Shown one piece after another: positions 6,523-62,821 of a stretch of 64,000 nt of DNA. A model generated the notes under the pieces. That model was given only the letters and a program-made list of their open reading frames with translations. It made no database searches and was not told where the DNA came from. The first letter of the stretch is position 1. Each line of letters opens with the position of its first letter. Source of the stretch: Nitrospirota bacterium (lineage in GTDB: Bacteria > Nitrospirota > Thermodesulfovibrionia > Thermodesulfovibrionales > Dissulfurispiraceae); NCBI GenBank assembly GCA_963790025.1, contig CAWBMP010000002.1, positions 128,001 to 192,000 of the forward strand, written 5' to 3'. The position numbers were made by a program, and so were the translations under genes.

Positions 6523-7760
6523 GACATATTCTTTTCCCGCTTCTGGGCAAAAGGGTGCCCGGGCAAGTTATCATCCAGTATACCGACAAATGTAATGCAC
6601 GATGTCCCCAGTGCGGCATGAGAGTTACGGAACTGTTCAGACGCTCGACACTTGAGCGCGATACAGTCAAAAAAATGATAGACCATGCTGCAGATAACGG
6701 TGTTAATGCCCTTTCCTTCACCGGGGGAGAGCCGTTTCTCTTCTTTGATGACATTATGGAACTTGTCAGGTATGCGGGCGATGCCGGAATAAAATACACG
6801 AGGACCGGCACCAATGGTTTTATGTTTATGCATTCCGACAGACCTGACTTCAAATCACGGATAAGGCGGATTGCCGAGGGCATTGCCGCAGCGGGGCTCT
6901 ATACGTTTTGGATAAGCGTCGATTCCGCCGTACCTCTTTTGCATGAACAAATGCGGGGACTCCCGGGAGTTATTGAGGGCATAGAAAAGGCGCTGCCTAT
7001 ATTTAGCGAATATGGGATCTATCCTTCCGCCAACCTCGGCATAAACAGGAATACCGGCGGAGTTTTTCAACCGGCAGCAGCAGAAGCAAGCTCCGAACAG
7101 CTTTACGACTCATTTAAAAAAGCGTTTGAAAAATTTTACAGTGCTGTAATCGATCTGGGATTTACAATAGTCAATGCCTGTTATCCCATGAGCATTGGCG
7201 CGGATGAAGCAGGCGAGCTGAATGCAGTATATGGAGCAACCTCCGCGGCCTCGCTCATACAGTTCAACAGGCGGGAGCGTGCCATTGTATTCAAGGCACT
7301 TTTTGATACTATACCGGCTTACAGATCAAAGGTGCGGATATTCTCGCCGAAGACCTCTCTTTATTCACTTGTCAGGCAATATACAGCAGATGAGGCATAC
7401 AGCTATTCCTGCCGGGGCGGTATTGAATTCTTTTTTGTCAACGCAAGTGACGGCAATACCTATCCATGCGGCTACCGGGGGACAGACAATCTGGGCAAAT
7501 TCTGGGAGCTTGACTTCGGGAAGCTCGATAAAAAAACTGAATGCAGAAGATGTGACTGGGAGTGCTTCAGGGACCCGTCTGAACTGTTCGGCCCTCTGCT
7601 TTCGCTTTTCGGTAATCCGGCATTCTTTTTCAAACGTGTTATCACGGATACATCGTATGTTAAGTTATGGATCGAGGACCTTCGATATTTTGCCGCCTGC
7701 AATTTCTTCGATGGAAGAAGCGCACCGGATTATAAAAAAATGTCAGGTTTTGGACTATAA
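6513..7760 (+). CDS. Radical SAM protein with SPASM-like C-terminus
   Basis: CNARCPQC, FTGGEP, C-terminal CRGG..PCGY..CRRCDWEC; ATG at 6513 overlaps the upstream gene end. Confidence 0.88.
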   Translation: MGIRHILFPLLGKRVPGQVIIQYTDKCNARCPQCGMRVTELFRRSTLERDTVKKMIDHAADNGVNALSFTGGEPFLFFDDIMELVRYAGDAGIKYTRTGTNGFMFMHSDRPDFKSRIRRIAEGIAAAGLYTFWISVDSAVPLLHEQMRGLPGVIEGIEKALPIFSEYGIYPSANLGINRNTGGVFQPAAAEASSEQLYDSFKKAFEKFYSAVIDLGFTIVNACYPMSIGADEAGELNAVYGATSAASLIQFNRRERAIVFKALFDTIPAYRSKVRIFSPKTSLYSLVRQYTADEAYSYSCRGGIEFFFVNASDGNTYPCGYRGTDNLGKFWELDFGKLDKKTECRRCDWECFRDPSELFGPLLSLFGNPAFFFKRVITDTSYVKLWIEDLRYFAACNFFDGRSAPDYKKMSGFGL

Positions 7761-7767
7761 CTTGGGA

Positions 7768-8451
7768 GTGCACGCATTCTCATCGAAATACATGTATTCG
7801 TTTTGTGCCTTTTTATTGGTCTTTACATTGTCGCCTGCTGCAAAGGCTGCGGACGGCCGCGACATTGCGGTCGGTTTTGACGGCGCGGTAGAAAACAACG
7901 GCATACCCAGGGCGTGGAAACTCACCATTAATTCAGGGCACGCAGATGCGGACGTTGTCAACAGGAACAATATGAACATTCTGCACATCAAGTGCATAGA
8001 TTCCTCATTTTCTTTAGAGCATATAGTGCCGGTTGATCCGGCTGATTACAACTCTATCATCTGGACTTGGAAAGCGGTACGGCTGCCGGAATCCGGTGAT
8101 GTACGCAAAAAAAGGCGCAACGATCAGGCTCTCCAACTGCTCGTCGGTTTTGAAAATAAAAAAGTACTCAGTTATGTCTGGGACACCAACGCCCCGGAAG
8201 GGACTGTAGCTCATGAGCACGTCATGTGGCCGATCAGCGTGTCGATTGCAGTTATCGTAGTGGAGTCGGGTGCCGCCAACCTGGGTAAATGGGTGACCCA
8301 GACTAGAAATATCTACGAGGATTACGAGAAATTTTTCAACGAACAGCCCCCTCGCGTCAAGGGTGTGAGGGTCCAGTCGAATACGCAGCATACAAGGGAT
8401 ACCGCCGAAGGATATGTGCGGGACATTATTTTCAGCAGATCGTCGCAGTAG
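7768..8451 (+). CDS. DUF3047-like exported protein (start 7768 GTG or 7792 ATG)
   Basis: Signal peptide ending AKA; W.WK...LP..GD.R, LSYVWD, W....RNIYEDY..FF motifs; the upstream part of ORF 7222 overlaps the radical SAM gene and is taken as spurious. Confidence 0.75.
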   Translation: MHAFSSKYMYSFCAFLLVFTLSPAAKAADGRDIAVGFDGAVENNGIPRAWKLTINSGHADADVVNRNNMNILHIKCIDSSFSLEHIVPVDPADYNSIIWTWKAVRLPESGDVRKKRRNDQALQLLVGFENKKVLSYVWDTNAPEGTVAHEHVMWPISVSIAVIVVESGAANLGKWVTQTRNIYEDYEKFFNEQPPRVKGVRVQSNTQHTRDTAEGYVRDIIFSRSSQ

Positions 8452-8542
8452 AACACGACATAGCCGTTGACTTTTTTATTCCGTTCAATAACAATTAGCT
8501 GATGAAACTCTGCATTCCCGTCACATTTGCAGCCTGACAGTC

Positions 8543-10231
8543 ATGAAAAGAAACATACAGTTCTTAGTCATTTTCGTGCTGACAGTGCTCACTGTCCTGC
8601 TGCTGTATGCATTCCGCAGTATGGATGACAACCGGCTGACGAGCTGGGAATCTGTATTCGGCGCAGTAAGCATTGTCCGTATAATCGCCCTCCTCGTGCC
8701 CGGCGGCATTCTGGCTTTTATGCTTTCAAAAAGTCCGCTGCCGGAGCGTTACCCCGTACTTTTTCTTTTCGTCGTGTCTTTTGCCGCTGCTGCCCTGCTC
8801 TGGAAAGAGCCGGAAATGAACGTAGATGCCTCACGGTATTTCACACAGGCCAAACATCTTGAACTCTATGGGGCCGGCTACTTCCTGGGAGAATGGGGAA
8901 AGACTATCGGGGCCTGGACAGACCTGCCGTTAATTCCTTTTATCTTTGGGCTTGCCTTCAGATGCCTGGGCGAAGCTAGAATATGTGTCCAGGTGATTAC
9001 AACACTCCTCTTTTCGTTCACCGTTGTGCTCACCTGTCTGATCGGCAAAACTCTCTGGGACAGGGAAACCGGTTTCTATGGCGGCATGTTCCTGCTCGGC
9101 ATCCCCTATCTTTTAACACAGGTGCCGCTTATGCTTGTGGATACTTCGACAATGTTCTTCTTCGCCCTTGCCGTATTTGTGTTTATTAGAGCGCTCGATC
9201 GGGGGGGGGGCTGGGTCCCGGCCTCATCCGCAGCCCTGTTTCTGGTCATTTTTTCCAAATATTCAGCGTGGCTGATGCTCTCTTTATTTATTATTATTGC
9301 GGCAGTGCGACTGTTTCAGGCTTACCGTACGCCTGGTGAGGTCCCGCTCAAGGGCTGCTGCTTCCGCATCATTGTCCCGTTCCTGACTGCTGCGCTTGCC
9401 GCCGGAGCCGTAATGCTCTTCAGATATGATGTCATCTCCTCAAACATAGAACTCCTTTTTTCTTTTCAAAGACCGGGGCTCAGAAGATGGGGAGAAAGCT
9501 TTGTCTCCACATTCCTGTTTCAGGTGCATCCATTTATTACCGCAGCCGCAGTTCTCTCCTTTTACAGTGCCTGGAGAAAAAGGGACCCTAAGCACCTGAT
9601 CATAAGCTGGCTCATAGTGCTCATCATCGCGCTCAGGATCGAACGGATACGCTATACAATAATCGCATTCCCCATGCTTTCTCTCATGGCCGCATACGGG
9701 CTCAATACCATTAAGGACAGAGGACTGAAAAGGTGCGTCGCTTTTTCGGCAGCAAGCTGTTCACTCATCCTCGCGGTTTTTGCCTATCTTCCCTTTCTGC
9801 AACAGACAAGCGCTCAGAATTTGAAAAATTCCGGGGCATTCCTCAATACTCTTCCTGGAAAAGACATCGAAGTAGTGACACTCCCCCGAAAAGACGACGA
9901 AGTCAATATAGCTGTTTTCGTACCTCTCCTCGATATTTTTACCGACAAGAAAATTCATTACGACTATGATCTTGACTATGCTCCACCGCCTGCAGAAATT
10001 GCGGTGTCTCCATTCCGCTTCAGCTGGATATATAGAAACCCGGCATATTATGCTGAAAATTATAGTGACATGGCTTATTCCTATGCCGCTGTTACAGTCA
10101 TTGCAGGAGAGCCGATATCCGCGCTTCCCGAAGAAGTCGCGTGGAAGGTGAGAAAATTCAGAAACTCAAAGTCCTTCTCTGTCCAGGATGATGTTTTCGA
10201 TCACCAGACGCTGGTCATTGTATATTACTAA
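8543..10231 (+). CDS. ArnT/PMT-like (GT-C, family 39) membrane glycosyltransferase
   Basis: Many TM segments; D..RYF loop, LP.IP, LMLVD, SKY and RY motifs. Confidence 0.78.
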   Translation: MKRNIQFLVIFVLTVLTVLLLYAFRSMDDNRLTSWESVFGAVSIVRIIALLVPGGILAFMLSKSPLPERYPVLFLFVVSFAAAALLWKEPEMNVDASRYFTQAKHLELYGAGYFLGEWGKTIGAWTDLPLIPFIFGLAFRCLGEARICVQVITTLLFSFTVVLTCLIGKTLWDRETGFYGGMFLLGIPYLLTQVPLMLVDTSTMFFFALAVFVFIRALDRGGGWVPASSAALFLVIFSKYSAWLMLSLFIIIAAVRLFQAYRTPGEVPLKGCCFRIIVPFLTAALAAGAVMLFRYDVISSNIELLFSFQRPGLRRWGESFVSTFLFQVHPFITAAAVLSFYSAWRKRDPKHLIISWLIVLIIALRIERIRYTIIAFPMLSLMAAYGLNTIKDRGLKRCVAFSAASCSLILAVFAYLPFLQQTSAQNLKNSGAFLNTLPGKDIEVVTLPRKDDEVNIAVFVPLLDIFTDKKIHYDYDLDYAPPPAEIAVSPFRFSWIYRNPAYYAENYSDMAYSYAAVTVIAGEPISALPEEVAWKVRKFRNSKSFSVQDDVFDHQTLVIVYY

Positions 10232-50437: not shown

Positions 50438-51196
50438 ATGTCAAACTGGAAAGATAATGTCTCTTTCGTACTCGTCGAGCCGCGTGAGCCCGCCAATATC
50501 GGCGCATCTGCACGGGCAATGAAAAACATGGGCTTCAAGGGCCTCTGCCTTGTAAAGCCGCCAGAAATCAACGACGAGGCACGGTCGCTTGCCCATAACG
50601 CCCTTGATGTCCTGGAAGGGGCAAGGCATTATGCCTGTCTTACTGATGCGCTTGACGATAAATCGCTTGTTGTCGCCGTAGCACGAAGGACCGGCAAGAA
50701 GCGAGGGTTAATCCTCGGACCGGACGAGACCGCGCAAAGAGTGTATGAAATTGCCTCCCATAATAAAGTGGCGCTTCTCTTCGGCAGGGAGGACAGGGGG
50801 TTGTATAACGAAGAGGTCAATGAGTGCGGCCTGCTCCTGACCATTCCTGCAAACAAGGAGCACCCCTCTTTAAACCTCTCCCACGCCATAATGGTTGTGG
50901 CCTATGCCCTTTCGAGGGTCCAATACAGAAAAGATCTTGTCCAAGCCGTGCCGGTGAAATCAAGGCGCGGGCAGAGCGGCCTTATCACCCACGGAGAACT
51001 TTCCGCGCTTTATGAGCGGATGGCAAACATCATCACGCTGCTCGAATACATCCCCCGGGGGGACAGAAACCTGAAGAAGCAAATAATGGATAACTTAAAG
51101 CATTTTATCGGCAGGGCGGGACTCAACGACTGGGAGATGAAAATGCTCCACGGCTTTTGCTCGCAGATAGAGCGCAAGTTGGGGAAAGGTGAGTGA
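50438..51196 (+). CDS. trmJ: TrmJ/LasT family SPOUT RNA methyltransferase
   Basis: VLVEP..PANIGASARAMKNMG, LFGRE.RGL.NEE, SLNLSHA. Confidence 0.88.
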   Translation: MSNWKDNVSFVLVEPREPANIGASARAMKNMGFKGLCLVKPPEINDEARSLAHNALDVLEGARHYACLTDALDDKSLVVAVARRTGKKRGLILGPDETAQRVYEIASHNKVALLFGREDRGLYNEEVNECGLLLTIPANKEHPSLNLSHAIMVVAYALSRVQYRKDLVQAVPVKSRRGQSGLITHGELSALYERMANIITLLEYIPRGDRNLKKQIMDNLKHFIGRAGLNDWEMKMLHGFCSQIERKLGKGE

Positions 51197-51201
51197 AGTT
51201 G

Positions 51202-51290
51202 TGTTCACGAAAAATAAAGTTGGTAACTGAAAAATAAAGTCGGTAATTAGAAAATAGAGTTGGTAATTGAAAAATAAAGTCGGCAACTGA
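51202..51290 (+). mobile_element. Tn7-like transposon right end (TGT terminus + four TnsB-type binding sites)
   Basis: TGTTCACGA then four contiguous 20-mers AAAATARAGTYGGYAAYTRR (51211-51290), in register with the Tn7 right end as I recall it (TGTGGGCGGACAATAAAGTCTTAAACTGA). Confidence 0.8.
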
Positions 51291-51431
51291 AAAACTTCCT
51301 GTATTTACCGGTATTAGCTAATTCAGTAAATTAATCAAGTTGACCAATTTAGTAATATCGTTAAAGTACTATTAAGTGTGGAGTCTGTTATCGGAAGAAA
51401 AATACATTATCGAGCCGTAACAGATGTTTCT

Positions 51432-52130: not shown

Positions 52131-52198
52131 CACAGAAAAACGCACAGCAGTCATGCCGCCAGGGGCTGCATGTTTCAAATGGAATCCATTTTATTGTA

Positions 52199-52396: not shown

Positions 52397-53869
52397 TCAC
52401 CTGGAGTAAAAACTAGGTTTAGGAAAGCCACCCCGGACAACAACAACTACAATTACAATTGGGGACTGTCCGGTCTGATGAACAAAGACCTCAATATCGT
52501 CTTCTACAACACCAACTGGTGCAGATTTCGGTGAGGCTTCGAGTACGGACAACACGCCAACTCGCTTCCCCAGCCCGATTGCATAAGCTGCTGTCTGATC
52601 AAAAAATTTAGAGAGATCCTTAGGAAACAGAACTTTGCTGTTCTCGACTTTCAATTCGATCGGGATATCCCGGAATGTGAGATCAGTGATCCCACCTGCT
52701 GCTTCGGGGTGACCTTGCAAGTGCTCACCAATATCACACCGGTTTCGAAGCATCTCAGTGGCTTTGTTTTGGAATTGCGATTCTGACGTACCAGCCTCGA
52801 ACAAGCCGCCTTTCAAAGCTTGTGCAGCGATGTTGCCCAACCCACCAAGTACTATCATTGTGTTGGCAACATCATCTGAATGCAAACCGGGGAAGCTTCT
52901 CAACTTGTCGCGAACGCTGAGGAGATGTCTATCAACATTTGAAAACCCAGTCAAAGGGTTTTTAGTAACATCACATCCCTCCAAGAGTAGACGGCGATGC
53001 CCTACAATTGCAACATCCTGGCAATTACTCGTGTCGTCGAATTCAGCTGCGTAAAGGAATTCGTATGGCCTTGAGCCGAACGAATGAGCCACCTCCAGAA
53101 CTGCCCGACCGGTGCCAGTAAGAAAGAAAGGGCCATCACCTTCGGGTTTCTCGAACTTGAAACTGGGCAACCAATCCCGCTCGCGTATGTCGATCGTTAC
53201 AGGTGTTAACGAGAGGACACTGGCACCTGTGGGCCAATTTGAAACCCTGACTTCTATCGTAAGGTCGTAAGACATCCCCGGCTTAAGATAGTTCCAGTGT
53301 TTAGCCGGCTCGCCGTCGATATCAAACTTCAAGAACGCTACGGTCGTTTCGGTTTTCTCAGTCTCTGCTGAACTTCCGTTGGAGACAGGAACGCGGAACC
53401 CTCCAAAACCTCGATCCCGAAGATTGGCGAACAAAAGAAGGGGCAGGGTCCATCGTTTCAACTGATCCTGTATGAGGGTCAATTCGTCCACGTTCTTGAG
53501 ACCTTCGACTTGATCCAGAAACGCGTTCAGCCGCTCATCAGCAGCGAAACTCAAAGACTTGTCAAGCTCTGACGCCTTTAGCTTCGCCGAACTCAAGAAC
53601 CTTTGAGCATCTGGTTCAGCATTGCGTACGGCATGCTTCCACTCAGCCAAGAGCACAAAGATGGCAATGGCCCTGTGATATGAGCGGTACTGATCCTCGA
53701 CATCACCTTGACCGATCTCAGAGATTGTTGCTTCAAGCTCCAAACAGGCTCTTTTTAGGCGCTCAAGGTCATGCGGCGAAGGCTTCAGAGCCCCCGCAAG
53801 TGTTGCAGCAACCTCAATCCTCGAAGAAAAAGCTCGGTGGAAAATCTCGAAGTTTGGCTCGTTTCTCAT
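52397..53869 (-). CDS. Hypothetical protein with a C-terminal PD-(D/E)XK restriction-endonuclease-like domain
   Basis: E..FQ helix, GGITDL...IPIELK, Q...Y; GGAG RBS inside the upstream gene. Confidence 0.75.
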   Translation of the reverse strand: MRNEPNFEIFHRAFSSRIEVAATLAGALKPSPHDLERLKRACLELEATISEIGQGDVEDQYRSYHRAIAIFVLLAEWKHAVRNAEPDAQRFLSSAKLKASELDKSLSFAADERLNAFLDQVEGLKNVDELTLIQDQLKRWTLPLLLFANLRDRGFGGFRVPVSNGSSAETEKTETTVAFLKFDIDGEPAKHWNYLKPGMSYDLTIEVRVSNWPTGASVLSLTPVTIDIRERDWLPSFKFEKPEGDGPFFLTGTGRAVLEVAHSFGSRPYEFLYAAEFDDTSNCQDVAIVGHRRLLLEGCDVTKNPLTGFSNVDRHLLSVRDKLRSFPGLHSDDVANTMIVLGGLGNIAAQALKGGLFEAGTSESQFQNKATEMLRNRCDIGEHLQGHPEAAGGITDLTFRDIPIELKVENSKVLFPKDLSKFFDQTAAYAIGLGKRVGVLSVLEASPKSAPVGVVEDDIEVFVHQTGQSPIVIVVVVVRGGFPKPSFYSR

Positions 53870-56381
53870 TTTCTTTCTCCAAGTCAGACAGAAGGCTGCT
53901 CCATTTTTCGATCAACTCGACAAACGCCCCTCCGCCTCCTATTGTGTGTTCAATCTCGGAAGCCGTCGCGACTAAAGCGGTTTCAAGTCGCCACTGTTCA
54001 TTTCGATCTTCTACTGGGATGCTTGCCATCAGTTCCCTAAAACAAGTGCTTGCAGCTGCATGGTTTCCTGCCTTAGTCAAGGCGGCAGCATAAAGAAGCG
54101 CTTCAACAAAGCCTTCTGGCCTGAATGGCCGGAGTGCTTCGAATGCCTTTTTAATTTCGTCTATACAGTTTTGAAGCTCATTGTGTGGGGCTCTTAAGAT
54201 CGCGGACACGCAGTCGTCGGTAGAAATGGAGCGCGTATAGTCATCTTGAATTGACTTCAGCGCCACTTTGGCAAAGCCAGGAACCTCCCCAAAGCCATAG
54301 TGCAACCGATCAACAGCATGGTAAAGGGCACTTCCCTCCAAGCTGAGCAAGATACCCGAGAGCAGCAGGCCGAGTTTCCCTTTTCTTTCTTCAGGCGAAA
54401 GGCAGAGAAACGCAAATGCGTCGATACAGTCGACAACGAAGTCCTCTTGCTTGCTTTGTTGGGAGTAGTAAACAATCAGGCTCCAGAGCCCGTGCTTAAT
54501 AAGGCTTCGTTTCTCTTTAGGAAATGATCTACGCCTCAGAGAATGAACGGCCGACCGATGAACAATGACATATGGGTCAGTAAGCAAGACGGAAAATGCT
54601 TCAAAGAACAGATCGGGAAAGTTCTTCACCAAGTCGTATGGGACATCCCCCCATGCTTGTACAGCGCTGGCACGGATCAATGTGCTCTCGTCCATAAGTG
54701 CACGATACCAATCGGAGAGCACTATCGTTAGGCTTTCGACCCCGGCCAACAATTTTGAAACATGAACTATCATGTTTCCACGCATTTGCGTTTGGTTCTC
54801 GGGCAACTTCCGATACAGTTCTAGGAGCTGTTCAATTCCTTCACGTCCCTTGGATTTTGCTCCAACTGCAGCCCATTCGATCAGTGCGCTCTGCAAGCCG
54901 TCAATTGCTCCGCGTTTGTTCGTTTTATCCATATGAGCGAGCACATCGCCAGTCAGTTCGAGAGAGCGCTCTGTATCTACTTGCTCATACTTCTCGCTAA
55001 GTGTAGCCGCTGCACCGATCAGATTATCAAAATGCTCGACTGCGAGCTGAGCAAACTCGTCCCAAGAATGTCTGAAGAACTGTCCCGCTTCATCCATGCC
55101 GTTCTCTGGGCTTTCTATGGCAGCCCAAAGCAATCTTCTAAATCCTATCCTTTGTGCTGTTCCTATCTGTGCCTTTTCCCGATAGCTGTGTTTCAGCACT
55201 GATCTATAGGTTCTATTAGCTTCTTCTCTTCCGGTATTGTCGTTGTCAGCAAGGAACGATTGGATGATCTTGTCCGTTTCCTCTGGAAAACGTTCGAGGC
55301 ACTTCGAGGCCGCTTCCCGAAGATAGTAGAGTACGCTGCTATCCCGGCGCACTCTCGGAAGCAGAAATCGCCTGCGCATAAGCTTGGCGAAGATACTTTC
55401 AGTATGTCTTGAAAGCAGCTCGTCACTATCCGTCGCAAGTATGATCTCAACGGCATCCCCAATTTTTTCTGGGTTCGCGTTACTTAGAAGTGCGTCGACC
55501 TCCGCACAAATCTGAGCACGCCTTTTCTGGAAGAGCGCGTGAATTGGCGCAGCATCAAGCCTTATTGGTTCGCTTCCTCCAAAATGCACTCCGGGTGGCG
55601 GTCCTAAGGCCATTGACACAAAGGGACGTAAAACCTTTTTCAAGTCGTCTTGGGAAAGCTTTTCCGCCCCCGACAAAACCAGGTCGATAGCCGCTGAAGA
55701 TTTCTCATAGCTGTTCACCAAGCTCACCGCCACTGAAAGCTTTTCTTCTGATTCTAACGGTGCCCTGAGTAATGCCTTCGCGGCAGGTCTAGAATACGGC
55801 AAGTTCTCGTGTAGCACTGCTGGCAAGAGATGTTCGATCACCTTTCTGGTAAATGTCTCAGGAGCAAGGTTTGCGAGTTGCTCCAGACGCGGATCGTTCC
55901 TTTCTATATCTTCCTGATCAAGCTCATCCAACAGATCGAAAACGAAGGTTTCCTCTAGAGAGAGTTCGTAGCGAAGTTTCGCCCGTTCTTGGCGCCTGTC
56001 GGTCTGCTTCTGCTTTCTCTCCCTTTCTTCTTCTTCGCGCGCTTCCTTTAGGTTTTCGGCAGCTTGTTCCCTCGGGTCAACAAAACTCATAATATTAGGA
56101 AATCCTACGGGAACCCGTTCCTCACAACCCTTGCAGTTGTTCTGGTAGAAGTCATAAGCTGCATCTTCCAGCAGCCAACAATACATGGAGTTTTTCTTAG
56201 AGAATTTGCACTGGACGCCCATGTGCCCAATTGGGAGACCAGTTGCAGCTTCAATCATTCCCCTTCCATGAGACCTTACGAACTCGGCATGGAAACACCA
56301 ATTTCTTAGAAGCTTTGTTGTTCGGAGATTGCGCTGGCCTGCTTCTATTGCATTTTTATAGCTGTCTTCAAAATCATCCAT
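53814..56381 (-). CDS. Large hypothetical protein: N-terminal Cys motif, coiled coil, HEAT/ARM-like helical repeats
   Basis: 855 aa; C...C...CKGC, charged coil, LMDE..LIRASAV and LLTDPYVIVHRSAV HEAT-like motifs. Confidence 0.75.
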   Translation of the reverse strand: MDDFEDSYKNAIEAGQRNLRTTKLLRNWCFHAEFVRSHGRGMIEAATGLPIGHMGVQCKFSKKNSMYCWLLEDAAYDFYQNNCKGCEERVPVGFPNIMSFVDPREQAAENLKEAREEEERERKQKQTDRRQERAKLRYELSLEETFVFDLLDELDQEDIERNDPRLEQLANLAPETFTRKVIEHLLPAVLHENLPYSRPAAKALLRAPLESEEKLSVAVSLVNSYEKSSAAIDLVLSGAEKLSQDDLKKVLRPFVSMALGPPPGVHFGGSEPIRLDAAPIHALFQKRRAQICAEVDALLSNANPEKIGDAVEIILATDSDELLSRHTESIFAKLMRRRFLLPRVRRDSSVLYYLREAASKCLERFPEETDKIIQSFLADNDNTGREEANRTYRSVLKHSYREKAQIGTAQRIGFRRLLWAAIESPENGMDEAGQFFRHSWDEFAQLAVEHFDNLIGAAATLSEKYEQVDTERSLELTGDVLAHMDKTNKRGAIDGLQSALIEWAAVGAKSKGREGIEQLLELYRKLPENQTQMRGNMIVHVSKLLAGVESLTIVLSDWYRALMDESTLIRASAVQAWGDVPYDLVKNFPDLFFEAFSVLLTDPYVIVHRSAVHSLRRRSFPKEKRSLIKHGLWSLIVYYSQQSKQEDFVVDCIDAFAFLCLSPEERKGKLGLLLSGILLSLEGSALYHAVDRLHYGFGEVPGFAKVALKSIQDDYTRSISTDDCVSAILRAPHNELQNCIDEIKKAFEALRPFRPEGFVEALLYAAALTKAGNHAAASTCFRELMASIPVEDRNEQWRLETALVATASEIEHTIGGGGAFVELIEKWSSLLSDLEKENEKRAKLRDFPPSFFFED

Positions 56382-61464: not shown

Positions 61465-61729
61465 TAGCGCCGTATTTCCAGTAGAAGCGGGTGAAGTCGA
61501 GAAGCGCCAGTTGGACCCCTCTGAAATTTATCTGATTAGCATTGGCGGAAAGATTGCCGATAACATTCACCTGTCACTGTATTGAGGCGTTATGTAACGG
61601 AAATTAAGTGTGCAGCACTGAAGGAATATCTTGAGCCGTTACTATGGAAGGCAGTCACGTAATCTTAAGCACTGCAAATTGTCATCCACATTTCACTCCT
61701 CAAAGGAGGATTCCATACAGGAGAAAATA

Positions 61730-62821
61730 ATGAATAATGCAGATAATGCCATACCGGAGACTCCATCTCCGGAAGAGTGTGCTAACAAGATCTTTGAGAT
61801 CAGCGGCGCCAAGCTTGATTCCGATATCGCTGCGGACCTATGGCAAAAAATATTGCAGCATAAATGGCTCATGTCTGAAAAGCTCAGCCGTGATGTAGGA
61901 TTGAGGACCGCATGTATCGACTTTCTTGAAAACATGGACCAGGCCCTCAGGGAATACATAGACTATAAACGGAAAGATGTTTTAGCCGAAATGGGAGCTC
62001 AAAAGATTAGAGCTGAAATATGGGATACGATATCCGATTCGCAGCCTCCAAAGCAATTGGTACAACGAAGAATTATTCTTCCGCTTAAAGAAGATGGCCT
62101 ATCCAAAAAGCATGGGGTGATTCCTCCTAAAACCATCATCTTCTTTGGACCTCCGGGTACGGGGAAGACTCATTTTGTAAAGGCTATAGCAGGAGTCCTG
62201 TCATGGTGGTACATCGAGATTTTGCCCAGCATGCTTATGGTGGACGGCGTAGAAAGGATAGGCGCTAATTTGCACAACGTAATGGAAAAGGCGCGTACTT
62301 TGGAGGATGTCGTTGTCTTTATAGACGAGTTTGAAGAGATTGCCGCGAGCAGGAATGAAGCAAACCGGATTGACAAGTCCATTACTAACGAATTCCTCAA
62401 ACAGGTTTCTTTGCTGAAAAATCAGGGGAATAAGGTATTATTTATATGTGCGACCAACTATATCCGGCTGTTGGACGCCGCACTGCTTCGACCGGGAAGA
62501 TTTGATTGCATTATTCCTGTCGGCGGGCTGGACGAGGATGGAAGGCGAACTATTTTGGAACAATTCCTGTCCAACCTTAATGCGGAGAACGTCGACCTCA
62601 ATCTCATTGTAAAGATGACAGCACGATTTACGCCGGCTGATATCGAATATCTCTTCCAGCAAGTGGCCCAATTTGCCTTTGAACAGGAGTATGCAAGCAA
62701 ACATAATTATCTTGTTACCACAGATACGTTTGTTGAAATTGTACCGAAAATTAAGCCATCTCTCACCGACGAGATTATTGATGAATTTCAAAAAGACGTT
62801 ATCACATATTCTCGAACATAG
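61730..62821 (+). CDS. AAA+ ATPase with a DUF4032-like N-terminal domain
   Basis: ILQHKWLMSE...RDVG; Walker A GPPGTGKT, Walker B VFIDE, SRH ATN...LDAALLRPGRFD. Confidence 0.88.
   Translation: MNNADNAIPETPSPEECANKIFEISGAKLDSDIAADLWQKILQHKWLMSEKLSRDVGLRTACIDFLENMDQALREYIDYKRKDVLAEMGAQKIRAEIWDTISDSQPPKQLVQRRIILPLKEDGLSKKHGVIPPKTIIFFGPPGTGKTHFVKAIAGVLSWWYIEILPSMLMVDGVERIGANLHNVMEKARTLEDVVVFIDEFEEIAASRNEANRIDKSITNEFLKQVSLLKNQGNKVLFICATNYIRLLDAALLRPGRFDCIIPVGGLDEDGRRTILEQFLSNLNAENVDLNLIVKMTARFTPADIEYLFQQVAQFAFEQEYASKHNYLVTTDTFVEIVPKIKPSLTDEIIDEFQKDVITYSRT

Follow-up and report, generated by a model that had tools for sequence, protein, structure and literature searches.

Background

Interest in Tn7-family elements stems from the precision with which they insert and from the prospect of programming it; every newly recognised natural attachment site is a pointer to a new selector protein that reads DNA. 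The right end of Tn7 is described as an 8-bp terminus followed by four close-packed, partly overlapping sites, and its left end as three spaced sites (PMC9308760). The sequence read by TnsD is given as the last 36 bp of glmS (+23 to +58), with insertion about 25 bp beyond it (PMC2918618). Tn7-like transposons are reported to carry defence systems (Benler et al. 2021, PMC8649781), and in Acinetobacter baumannii remnants of ancestral Tn7-like insertions are described as marking an attachment site downstream of nrdB (PMC11014353).

Here we examine a stretch of 64,000 nucleotides (the window) from the genome of a Nitrospirota bacterium of the Dissulfurispiraceae, in which an initial annotation had placed a Tn7-like right end 5 bp after the stop codon of trmJ and had proposed the trmJ 3' region as a possible new attachment site. 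Searches of the full-text literature returned no paper linking Tn7-like elements to trmJ, nor any linking a Tn7-like attachment site to a tRNA methyltransferase. Papers that name both Tn7 and trmJ are, by title and abstract, tRNA-modification studies, none of them on transposon targeting, and the main texts of two Tn7 surveys (PMC10293859, PMC8649781) contain neither 'trm' nor 'SpoU' nor 'methyltransferase'.

A Tn7-type right end downstream of trmJ

The gene preceding the array is identified as trmJ by profile searches, its product matching TIGR00050 with 200 bits (cut-off 167) as well as Pfam SpoU_methylase. The features of the locus are collected in Table 1. All coordinates given by the initial annotation for the trmJ stop codon, the AGTTG that follows it, the terminal segment and the four exact-period 20-bp repeats were confirmed. 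The offsets counted from 51202 (AATAAAGT at positions 12-19, AACTGA at 24-29) were likewise right, as was the orientation of the end, which faces the 3' end of trmJ. AGTTG would be one of the two copies of a 5-bp target duplication; the second, beside a left end, does not exist.

Table 1. Features of the trmJ locus and the region downstream of it (positions in the window)
Feature	Position	Strand	Basis or remark
trmJ (TrmJ/YjtD-family tRNA 2'-O-methyltransferase)	50438-51196	+	Intact ORF; TGA at 51194-51196
Conserved 3' coding block of trmJ, GRAGL..WE.KMLHG.CSQIE	51110-51175	+	Candidate TnsD/TniQ-type recognition sequence
AGTTG, 5 bp between trmJ stop and transposon terminus	51197-51201	+	Read from sequence
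Terminal 8 bp of right end, TGTTCACG, with 5'-TGT terminus	51202-51209	+	Sequence and alignment
Four contiguous 20-bp TnsB-type sites (predicted)	51210-51229, 51230-51249, 51250-51269, 51270-51289	+	Repeat finding and alignment
ORF-less group II intron, single copy in the genome	51432-52145	-	Rfam; 5' GTGCG by eye at 52141-52145
oloB-like gene, Olokun defence pair	52397-53869	-	PADLOC OloB, E 3.6e-56
oloA-like gene, Olokun defence pair	53814-56381	-	PADLOC OloA, E 4.1e-73

Tandem Repeats Finder delimits the array at 51209-51294, with a period of 20, 4.3 copies, 81% matches and a score of 116; a separate repeat search placed the copies at exact 20-nt spacing, and the four units are followed by a partial fifth (AAAAAC). 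A degenerate pattern of the site has four exact matches in the 64-kb window, all of them on the plus strand and within the array, against a mean of 1.16 from shuffles. One unrelated match with three mismatches occurs at position 1669. The array has the arrangement of a Tn7 right end, that is, a TGT terminus with an 8-bp segment, a first site directly after it, and close-packed sites in the same orientation at a 20-bp phase.

A scan of public metagenome contigs for two sites in phase yielded 45 loci, many of which are arrays starting with TGT-N5/6 and holding three or four copies of the same site. In several of them the copies are an identical 17-mer, AAATAAAGTTGGTAACT, and in three (L137, L150 and L141) such identical 17-mers stand in triplicate ahead of tnsA. 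Arrays located just past glmS were found at L113, L125, L150, L141, L124 and L144 (glmS recognised by Pfam) and at L123 (by translation). The genes that follow the arrays encode TnsA and a TnsB-like protein in L137, TnsA in L150 and L141, and TnsA, B, C, D and E in L113. The window array aligns without gaps to the right ends of L137, L150, L141 and L113 over the first 68 columns. In the ungapped alignment of eight rows, AATAAAG and TAAC are invariant within each of the three sites and the G of the TGT terminus is invariant in all eight, counting a row that starts a base late and a trmJ-linked end that reads TGA. An element annotated in RefSeq on an IncN plasmid likewise carries TGT-N7-AATAAAGTTGG units repeated every 20 bp, and its annotated genes for TnsA and a Mu-type transposase follow directly.

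Given the end architecture described in PMC9308760 and the alignments with ends linked to tnsA and tnsB, the window feature fits a Tn7-type right end. The claim of the initial annotation that this is a Tn7-family end is thus borne out, the in-register comparators being ends of tnsA/tnsB-carrying Tn7-like elements other than canonical Tn7. At the level of sequence, these comparisons support 51202-51289 as a Tn7-family right end composed of a TGT terminus and four phased, predicted TnsB sites.

The end is an orphan in its genome

The source genome (G000) is nearly closed, with 5 contigs and 98.81% completeness. Inverted copies of the sites were found neither in the 64-kb window nor downstream on the contig at up to two mismatches, and no second site cluster exists anywhere in the genome at three to four mismatches. 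The left-end junction that the initial annotation predicted, reverse-complement sites ending in ACA followed by AGTTG, did not materialise: ACAAGTTG has four matches downstream on the contig, with no sites beside any of them. A lone end-like match (G000:C2:239288) sits inside a 500-aa ORF and was dismissed as chance.

The proteins are missing as well. A profile search of G000 for TniQ, Mu-transpos_C and rve gave no match (as controls, rve was matched in 6 of 14 genomes and TniQ was found in 7 of 68 genomes of the family), a tblastn search with eight Tns proteins from glmS-linked elements reached a best E value of 0.22, and no cas genes occur among the ORFs scanned near the right end. Of the parts of a complete Tn7-like transposon, G000 thus lacks the left end, the 5-bp duplication on both sides, tnsA/B/C and TniQ. 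The right end at 51202-51289 is an immobile orphan, not an element, and the proposal of an element inserted at trmJ, with a cognate left end, an AGTTG duplication and tnsABC/tniQ genes, does not hold for this genome. Relatives, moreover, have the repeats with unrelated downstream content. Part of what the initial annotation had named as evidence against itself is thereby observed.

Genes downstream of the right end

A group II intron is located between the right end and the defence genes and forms no part of the end. It scores 72.6 bits with RF02005 (gathering score 49), and its catalytic domain V/VI was counted as present along with domains I-IV, although the score of the domain V/VI model RF00029, 34.5 bits, falls short of the gathering score of 40. 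The search for a reverse-transcriptase ORF was negative. On contigs from wetland, peat and soil sequencing runs the intron has a high summed depth, and those contigs break at the position expected of a reverse-transcriptase ORF, which gives it the appearance of a stripped copy from a family of introns that is abundant.

The two genes beyond the intron form an Olokun pair, oloA and oloB adjoining and overlapping on the minus strand. Neither has a Pfam or NCBIfam match, and a protein atlas returned only unnamed clusters for the 855-aa ORF, the name having come from PADLOC. The oloB-like gene is probably former cargo or island content. The array is followed by a low-GC stretch. Farther on, at 61631-62821 on the plus strand, lies a gene for an AAA ATPase resembling IetA (PADLOC, E 2.6e-25); since the next gene encodes a PAS histidine kinase and not a protease, no IetAS pair is evident there. 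Synteny beyond trmJ is disrupted in every member of the genus compared, so the far border of the island could not be placed.

Right ends recur after trmJ in relatives

TrmJ was matched in 28 of the 31 genomes of a sample of relatives, and the flank could be read in 26, the other two matches being too weak for trmJ. Recognisable end sites follow trmJ in 10 of these 26 genomes, G000 among them, and are lacking in 16, including the close kin G002 and G007. Four sites each occur in G000, G001 and G013, and two in G012 and in G003, whose array has become part of the trmJ ORF by fusion. In G004 a different, second end type comes first, and two sites of the first type follow it; a single degenerate site is left in G008 and in G009, and G005 and G018 have the second end type only.

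The exact terminal 18-mer TGTTCACGAAAAATAAAG is also found after trmJ in G001 and G012, and a search at up to two mismatches in 301 genomes of the order recovered arrays in G000, G001 and G012 only. An exact scan of public genomes for the same 18-mer gave 30 loci, of which those in two relatives (L067, L077) and on one Desulfuromonadales contig are relevant; the remainder were set aside as chance-like matches. Three more genomes, G232, G136 and G059, came from a pattern search across 401 genomes of the phylum; in all three an array directly follows a trmJ homologue. A metagenome contig (L111) has three sites after a trmJ that is 52% identical. The arrays linked to trmJ have one orientation in all lineages found. 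At least three site variants occur there, GGTAACT (G000, G001, G012, L111, G232), GGAAACT (G013, G059) and GTATACT (G136), besides the different second end type. No tns genes are present in the available downstream sequence of any trmJ-linked locus (the G059 contig stops inside the array), no other copies of the sites were found in the genomes of G001, G012 and G004, and homology between loci ends within about 100 nt of the arrays. Among fragmentary contigs from public sequencing runs, none joins trmJ to another form of the locus.

The second end type (G004 = L017, G005 = L011, G018 = L019) is an end-like array that reads TGTTGAATT.GAC, after which ACAAAAAAG..AACAGTAG units recur about every 20 bp. 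The G004 copy is placed between trmJ and the partial first-type end. This type, too, is solo in its genomes, with no link to tns genes.

Some of these loci have features of their own. At the G232 locus (L169, G232:C5), two arrays in the same orientation lie 13.6 kb apart, at about 5020 and 18640, with ATAAT before both; as the duplication of a full insertion this pair is unconfirmed, there being no clear left end and no tns genes between the arrays. The distal array abuts an IS21-family element (IstA/IstB), and some 50 nt at that junction, possibly an IS21 terminus, also occur just inside the ends of G001 and G004. At the G136 locus (L170, G136:C9), a two-site relic of an end lies by a HigB/HigA-like pair, a SecB-like gene and a CBASS-type set (patatin, DncV-like nucleotidyltransferase, E1/E2 fusion and JAB).

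Two further loci concern other genes. At L154 (G484:C37:58591), an end-like array (TGTGGAGAAAAATAAAC...) comes directly after the stop codon of a gene other than trmJ and glmS, whose end reads ...CLKCMSCGETSGCS; it may mark a further attachment site, this one in another family of Nitrospirota. At L061 (Desulfuromonadales, 6710-10018), glmS is followed by one site and, 3.3 kb on, by an inverted end of the left type that terminates in the same 18-mer. The interval encloses a hybrid histidine kinase only, with no tns genes, as if an element at attTn7 had been stripped.

A fixed distance from a conserved block

Distances were counted from the first base of the K codon in the KMLHG motif of TrmJ to the transposon terminus. 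The distance is 62 nt in G000, 61 nt in G001, G012, G013, L111, G136 and G009, 60 nt in G003, 63 nt in G232 and about 63 nt for the second end type in G004. In G059 it is 68 nt, with a GCT microsatellite in between. The terminus thus lies 60-63 nt past the K codon in 10 of the 11 readable arrays (8 at 60-62, 2 at 63) and at 68 nt in one. Meanwhile the stop codon falls anywhere from 0 to 14 nt before the terminus, or beyond it in G003, and the tail sequences vary. Across 18 trmJ 3' ends, column identity is about 0.7-0.9 up to about +40 and then 0.4-0.5 around the insertion point, so that conservation drops some 22-32 nt ahead of that point.

One position and one orientation are therefore shared by arrays in separate lineages. 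The layout of the trmJ loci matches that of TnsD and attTn7, and the region at about 51140-51180, which the initial annotation took to be recognised by a selector, is indeed situated where a TnsD-type site would be; by this analogy, the conserved block may be what a selector reads. No TniQ element adjoining trmJ was encountered in the regions compared. The searches turned up neither an intact element nor a target selector linked to trmJ in any locus or genome covered, so the case for an attachment site is made from recurrence and geometry. The proposal of trmJ as an attachment site accordingly stands as far as recurrence, orientation and geometry go, and fails in its expectation of an intact element or selector beside the gene. 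In Dissulfurispiraceae and their order, the trmJ 3' end is a probable site of recurrent attachment, one for which we found no description in the literature. It has several hallmarks of such a site: a fixed distance from a conserved block, a single orientation, several end types and defence genes alongside.

We consider it probable that the window holds a Tn7-family right end left by site-specific insertion past trmJ, with targeting that was itself probably of the TnsD/TniQ type, and that the rest of the element has been lost or replaced. An element would have inserted just past trmJ with its right end towards the gene. Most likely, a TnsD/TniQ-type selector would have read the conserved trmJ 3' block and placed the element about 25 bp beyond it, like Tn7 at glmS. 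The tns genes and left end would since have been lost or replaced. The remnant would be an orphan end, immobile and bordering a variable region in which the group II intron and the Olokun pair are found today. Against this explanation, a fixed distance would also persist by vertical descent without indels.

Age of the ends and alternative origins

The ends are far more alike than the third codon positions of the genes they follow. Over their first 48 nt, G000 shares 43/48 positions with G001, 42/48 with G012 and 43/48 with L111 (the range quoted between hosts is 42-44/48), whereas trmJ third codon positions are identical at fractions of 0.63, 0.39 and 0.38 for the same three pairs. The ends are therefore either younger than the divergence of their hosts or under constraint; on these comparisons, they are not old neutral DNA. 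More than ten trmJ-linked ends are known, all solo and yet well kept. Such a combination is not what one would expect of simple decay, and selection on the array may play a part.

The orphan array could have been kept by selection, either as a cis-acting decoy for target immunity or as a host regulatory or 3'-UTR element. As a decoy, it would be bound by the TnsB of an arriving cognate element, and insertion in the vicinity of trmJ would be blocked. Several observations would agree with such exaptation: the arrays stay near the site consensus (42-44/48 between hosts) while trmJ synonymous sites are near saturation, every trmJ-linked end found is solo, and the cognate type of TnsB was not found in 317 genomes of the order. 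TnsB sites within a target are also described as giving immunity (PMC9308760, PMC11014353), and an immobile mini-Tn6022 in its att site is reported to bring transposition from about 100% down to about 2e-5% (PMC11014353). Because an immobile element in an att site can confer immunity in that account, selection for an immunity decoy is conceivable. The distribution is patchy, however, with 16 of 26 relatives, including the close kin G002 and G007, having no recognisable site; some arrays are decaying (one site in G008 and G009, fusion into the trmJ ORF in G003); and the site variants are easier to explain by different incoming elements. We regard exaptation as rather unlikely. It is a little less likely still that the trmJ-side right ends are, specifically, domesticated decoys whose TnsB sites shut the landing site and the defence island to cognate transposons.

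We read the distribution as repeated insertion past trmJ by different element lineages, since the site variants are specific to each array and uniform within an end, as in real elements, and presence and absence alternate among close relatives. The contrary possibility, one ancient insertion inherited vertically and lost many times, with trmJ not repeatedly used, would account for the common terminal 18-mer of G000, G001 and G012, for the same distance from the trmJ block everywhere (as without indels) and for the lack of any living donor element found. It seems unlikely to us, as the similarity of the ends is flat against host divergence (43/48 both within the genus and against a host with 52% identity in TrmJ), every array carries a variant of its own (GGTAACT, GGAAACT or GTATACT) in the manner of real elements, an unrelated second end type intervenes between trmJ and the partial first-type end in G004, and presence differs among close relatives. 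A single ancient insertion, combined with homogenisation of the tandem units, is nonetheless conceivable.

Potential donors for repeated insertion were sought by way of TnsB. The TnsB proteins of L137 and L113 are 73% identical to each other. With the L137 protein, representing the cognate type, the best match in 68 genomes of the family is 29% identical, and no match at E<=1e-30 was found in 317 genomes of the order, a search that had no positive control there, the same query having found distant TnsBs in the family. Tn7-like elements with tnsA/B/C and TniQ do occur in the family (G002, G001 contig 59, G232 and G309), and in some of these the selector is of the TniQ+HTH_17 kind. The TnsB type that goes with trmJ-linked sites shares only 28-29% identity with theirs. 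In G059, TnsA is encoded on another contig, which is without these sites.

The Tn7-like elements of G001 contig 59, G002, G012 contig 110, G232, G309, G243 and G004 were considered as donors and rejected, none lying beside trmJ in the regions compared and their ends differing wherever inspected. Two of them (L107 in G232 and L108 in G309) have intact-looking tnsA-tnsB-tnsC-tniQ sets and ATAGCTTAAC-type ends and are inserted inside the 3' part of a SAM-methyltransferase-like gene.

Metagenome-assembled genomes tend to lose mobile DNA. As most of the relatives are genomes of this kind, the absence of elements from them is weak evidence, and such loss may explain part of the missing donors, though G000 is nearly closed.

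A complete non-canonical or non-autonomous element might alternatively still start at 51202, its far end having diverged and its movement being provided in trans. The island-type genes downstream (Olokun), the low-GC stretch and the synteny break at trmJ in every genus member compared would fit such an element. It is nevertheless very improbable: the genome has no second site cluster even at three to four mismatches, no AGTTG-flanked ACA terminus and no transposase able to act on the 51202 end, and G001, G012 and G004 are likewise without second copies of the sites. That the array is a host tandem repeat or iteron resembling Tn7 ends by coincidence is scarcely credible, for although it is AT-rich and tandem with no transposition genes near, its TGT terminus and three of its sites line up in register with those of genuine right ends, the same kind of site stands as identical 17-mers in triplicate before tnsA (L137, L150, L141), and its position after a conserved gene is fixed.

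Comparison with known systems

As this locus shows, a clean right end can persist in many lineages when the remainder of the element is gone. Such outlasting ends bear on the seeding of defence islands and on the protection of sites by leftover ends via target immunity. If no living trmJ-targeting element exists, the trmJ ends are the fossil record of one.

The trmJ ends differ from the Tn7-like elements of their own family (G002, G001 contig 59, G232, G309), which have different ends and none of which lies beside trmJ. With defence-carrying Tn7-like transposons they share the presence of defence genes adjoining the end, Olokun in G000 and a CBASS-type set in G136, both of which are typical Tn7 cargo; unlike in those transposons, there is no left end here, and the Olokun and CBASS genes may be cargo or later arrivals alike.

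Compared with Tn7 itself, the target is trmJ and not glmS, the period is 20 bp as against the 22-bp overlapping sites described for Tn7, and the trmJ-side end is without tns genes, left end or selector. In other respects the resemblance to Tn7 and Tn7-like elements at attTn7 is close: in both cases the right end begins with TGT, has closely packed TnsB sites and is turned towards the 3' end of a conserved gene, the insertion lies about 25 bp past a conserved coding block and leaves the target gene intact, and the site sequence is common to the trmJ ends and the glmS-linked elements with tnsA and tnsB.

The remnants downstream of nrdB in A. baumannii and the solo right ends after glmS in L125, L124 and L144 provide the nearest parallels. 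The latter are followed by cargo-type genes (type I restriction-modification, efflux, Tle1-like). Unlike both, the ends described here stand at trmJ and recur across an order of Nitrospirota in which no TnsB of the cognate type was found. At nrdB, as described, some A. baumannii genomes keep tns genes while the ends are hard to recognise, and the trmJ case is the reverse. In all three settings it is decayed elements that mark the attachment site.
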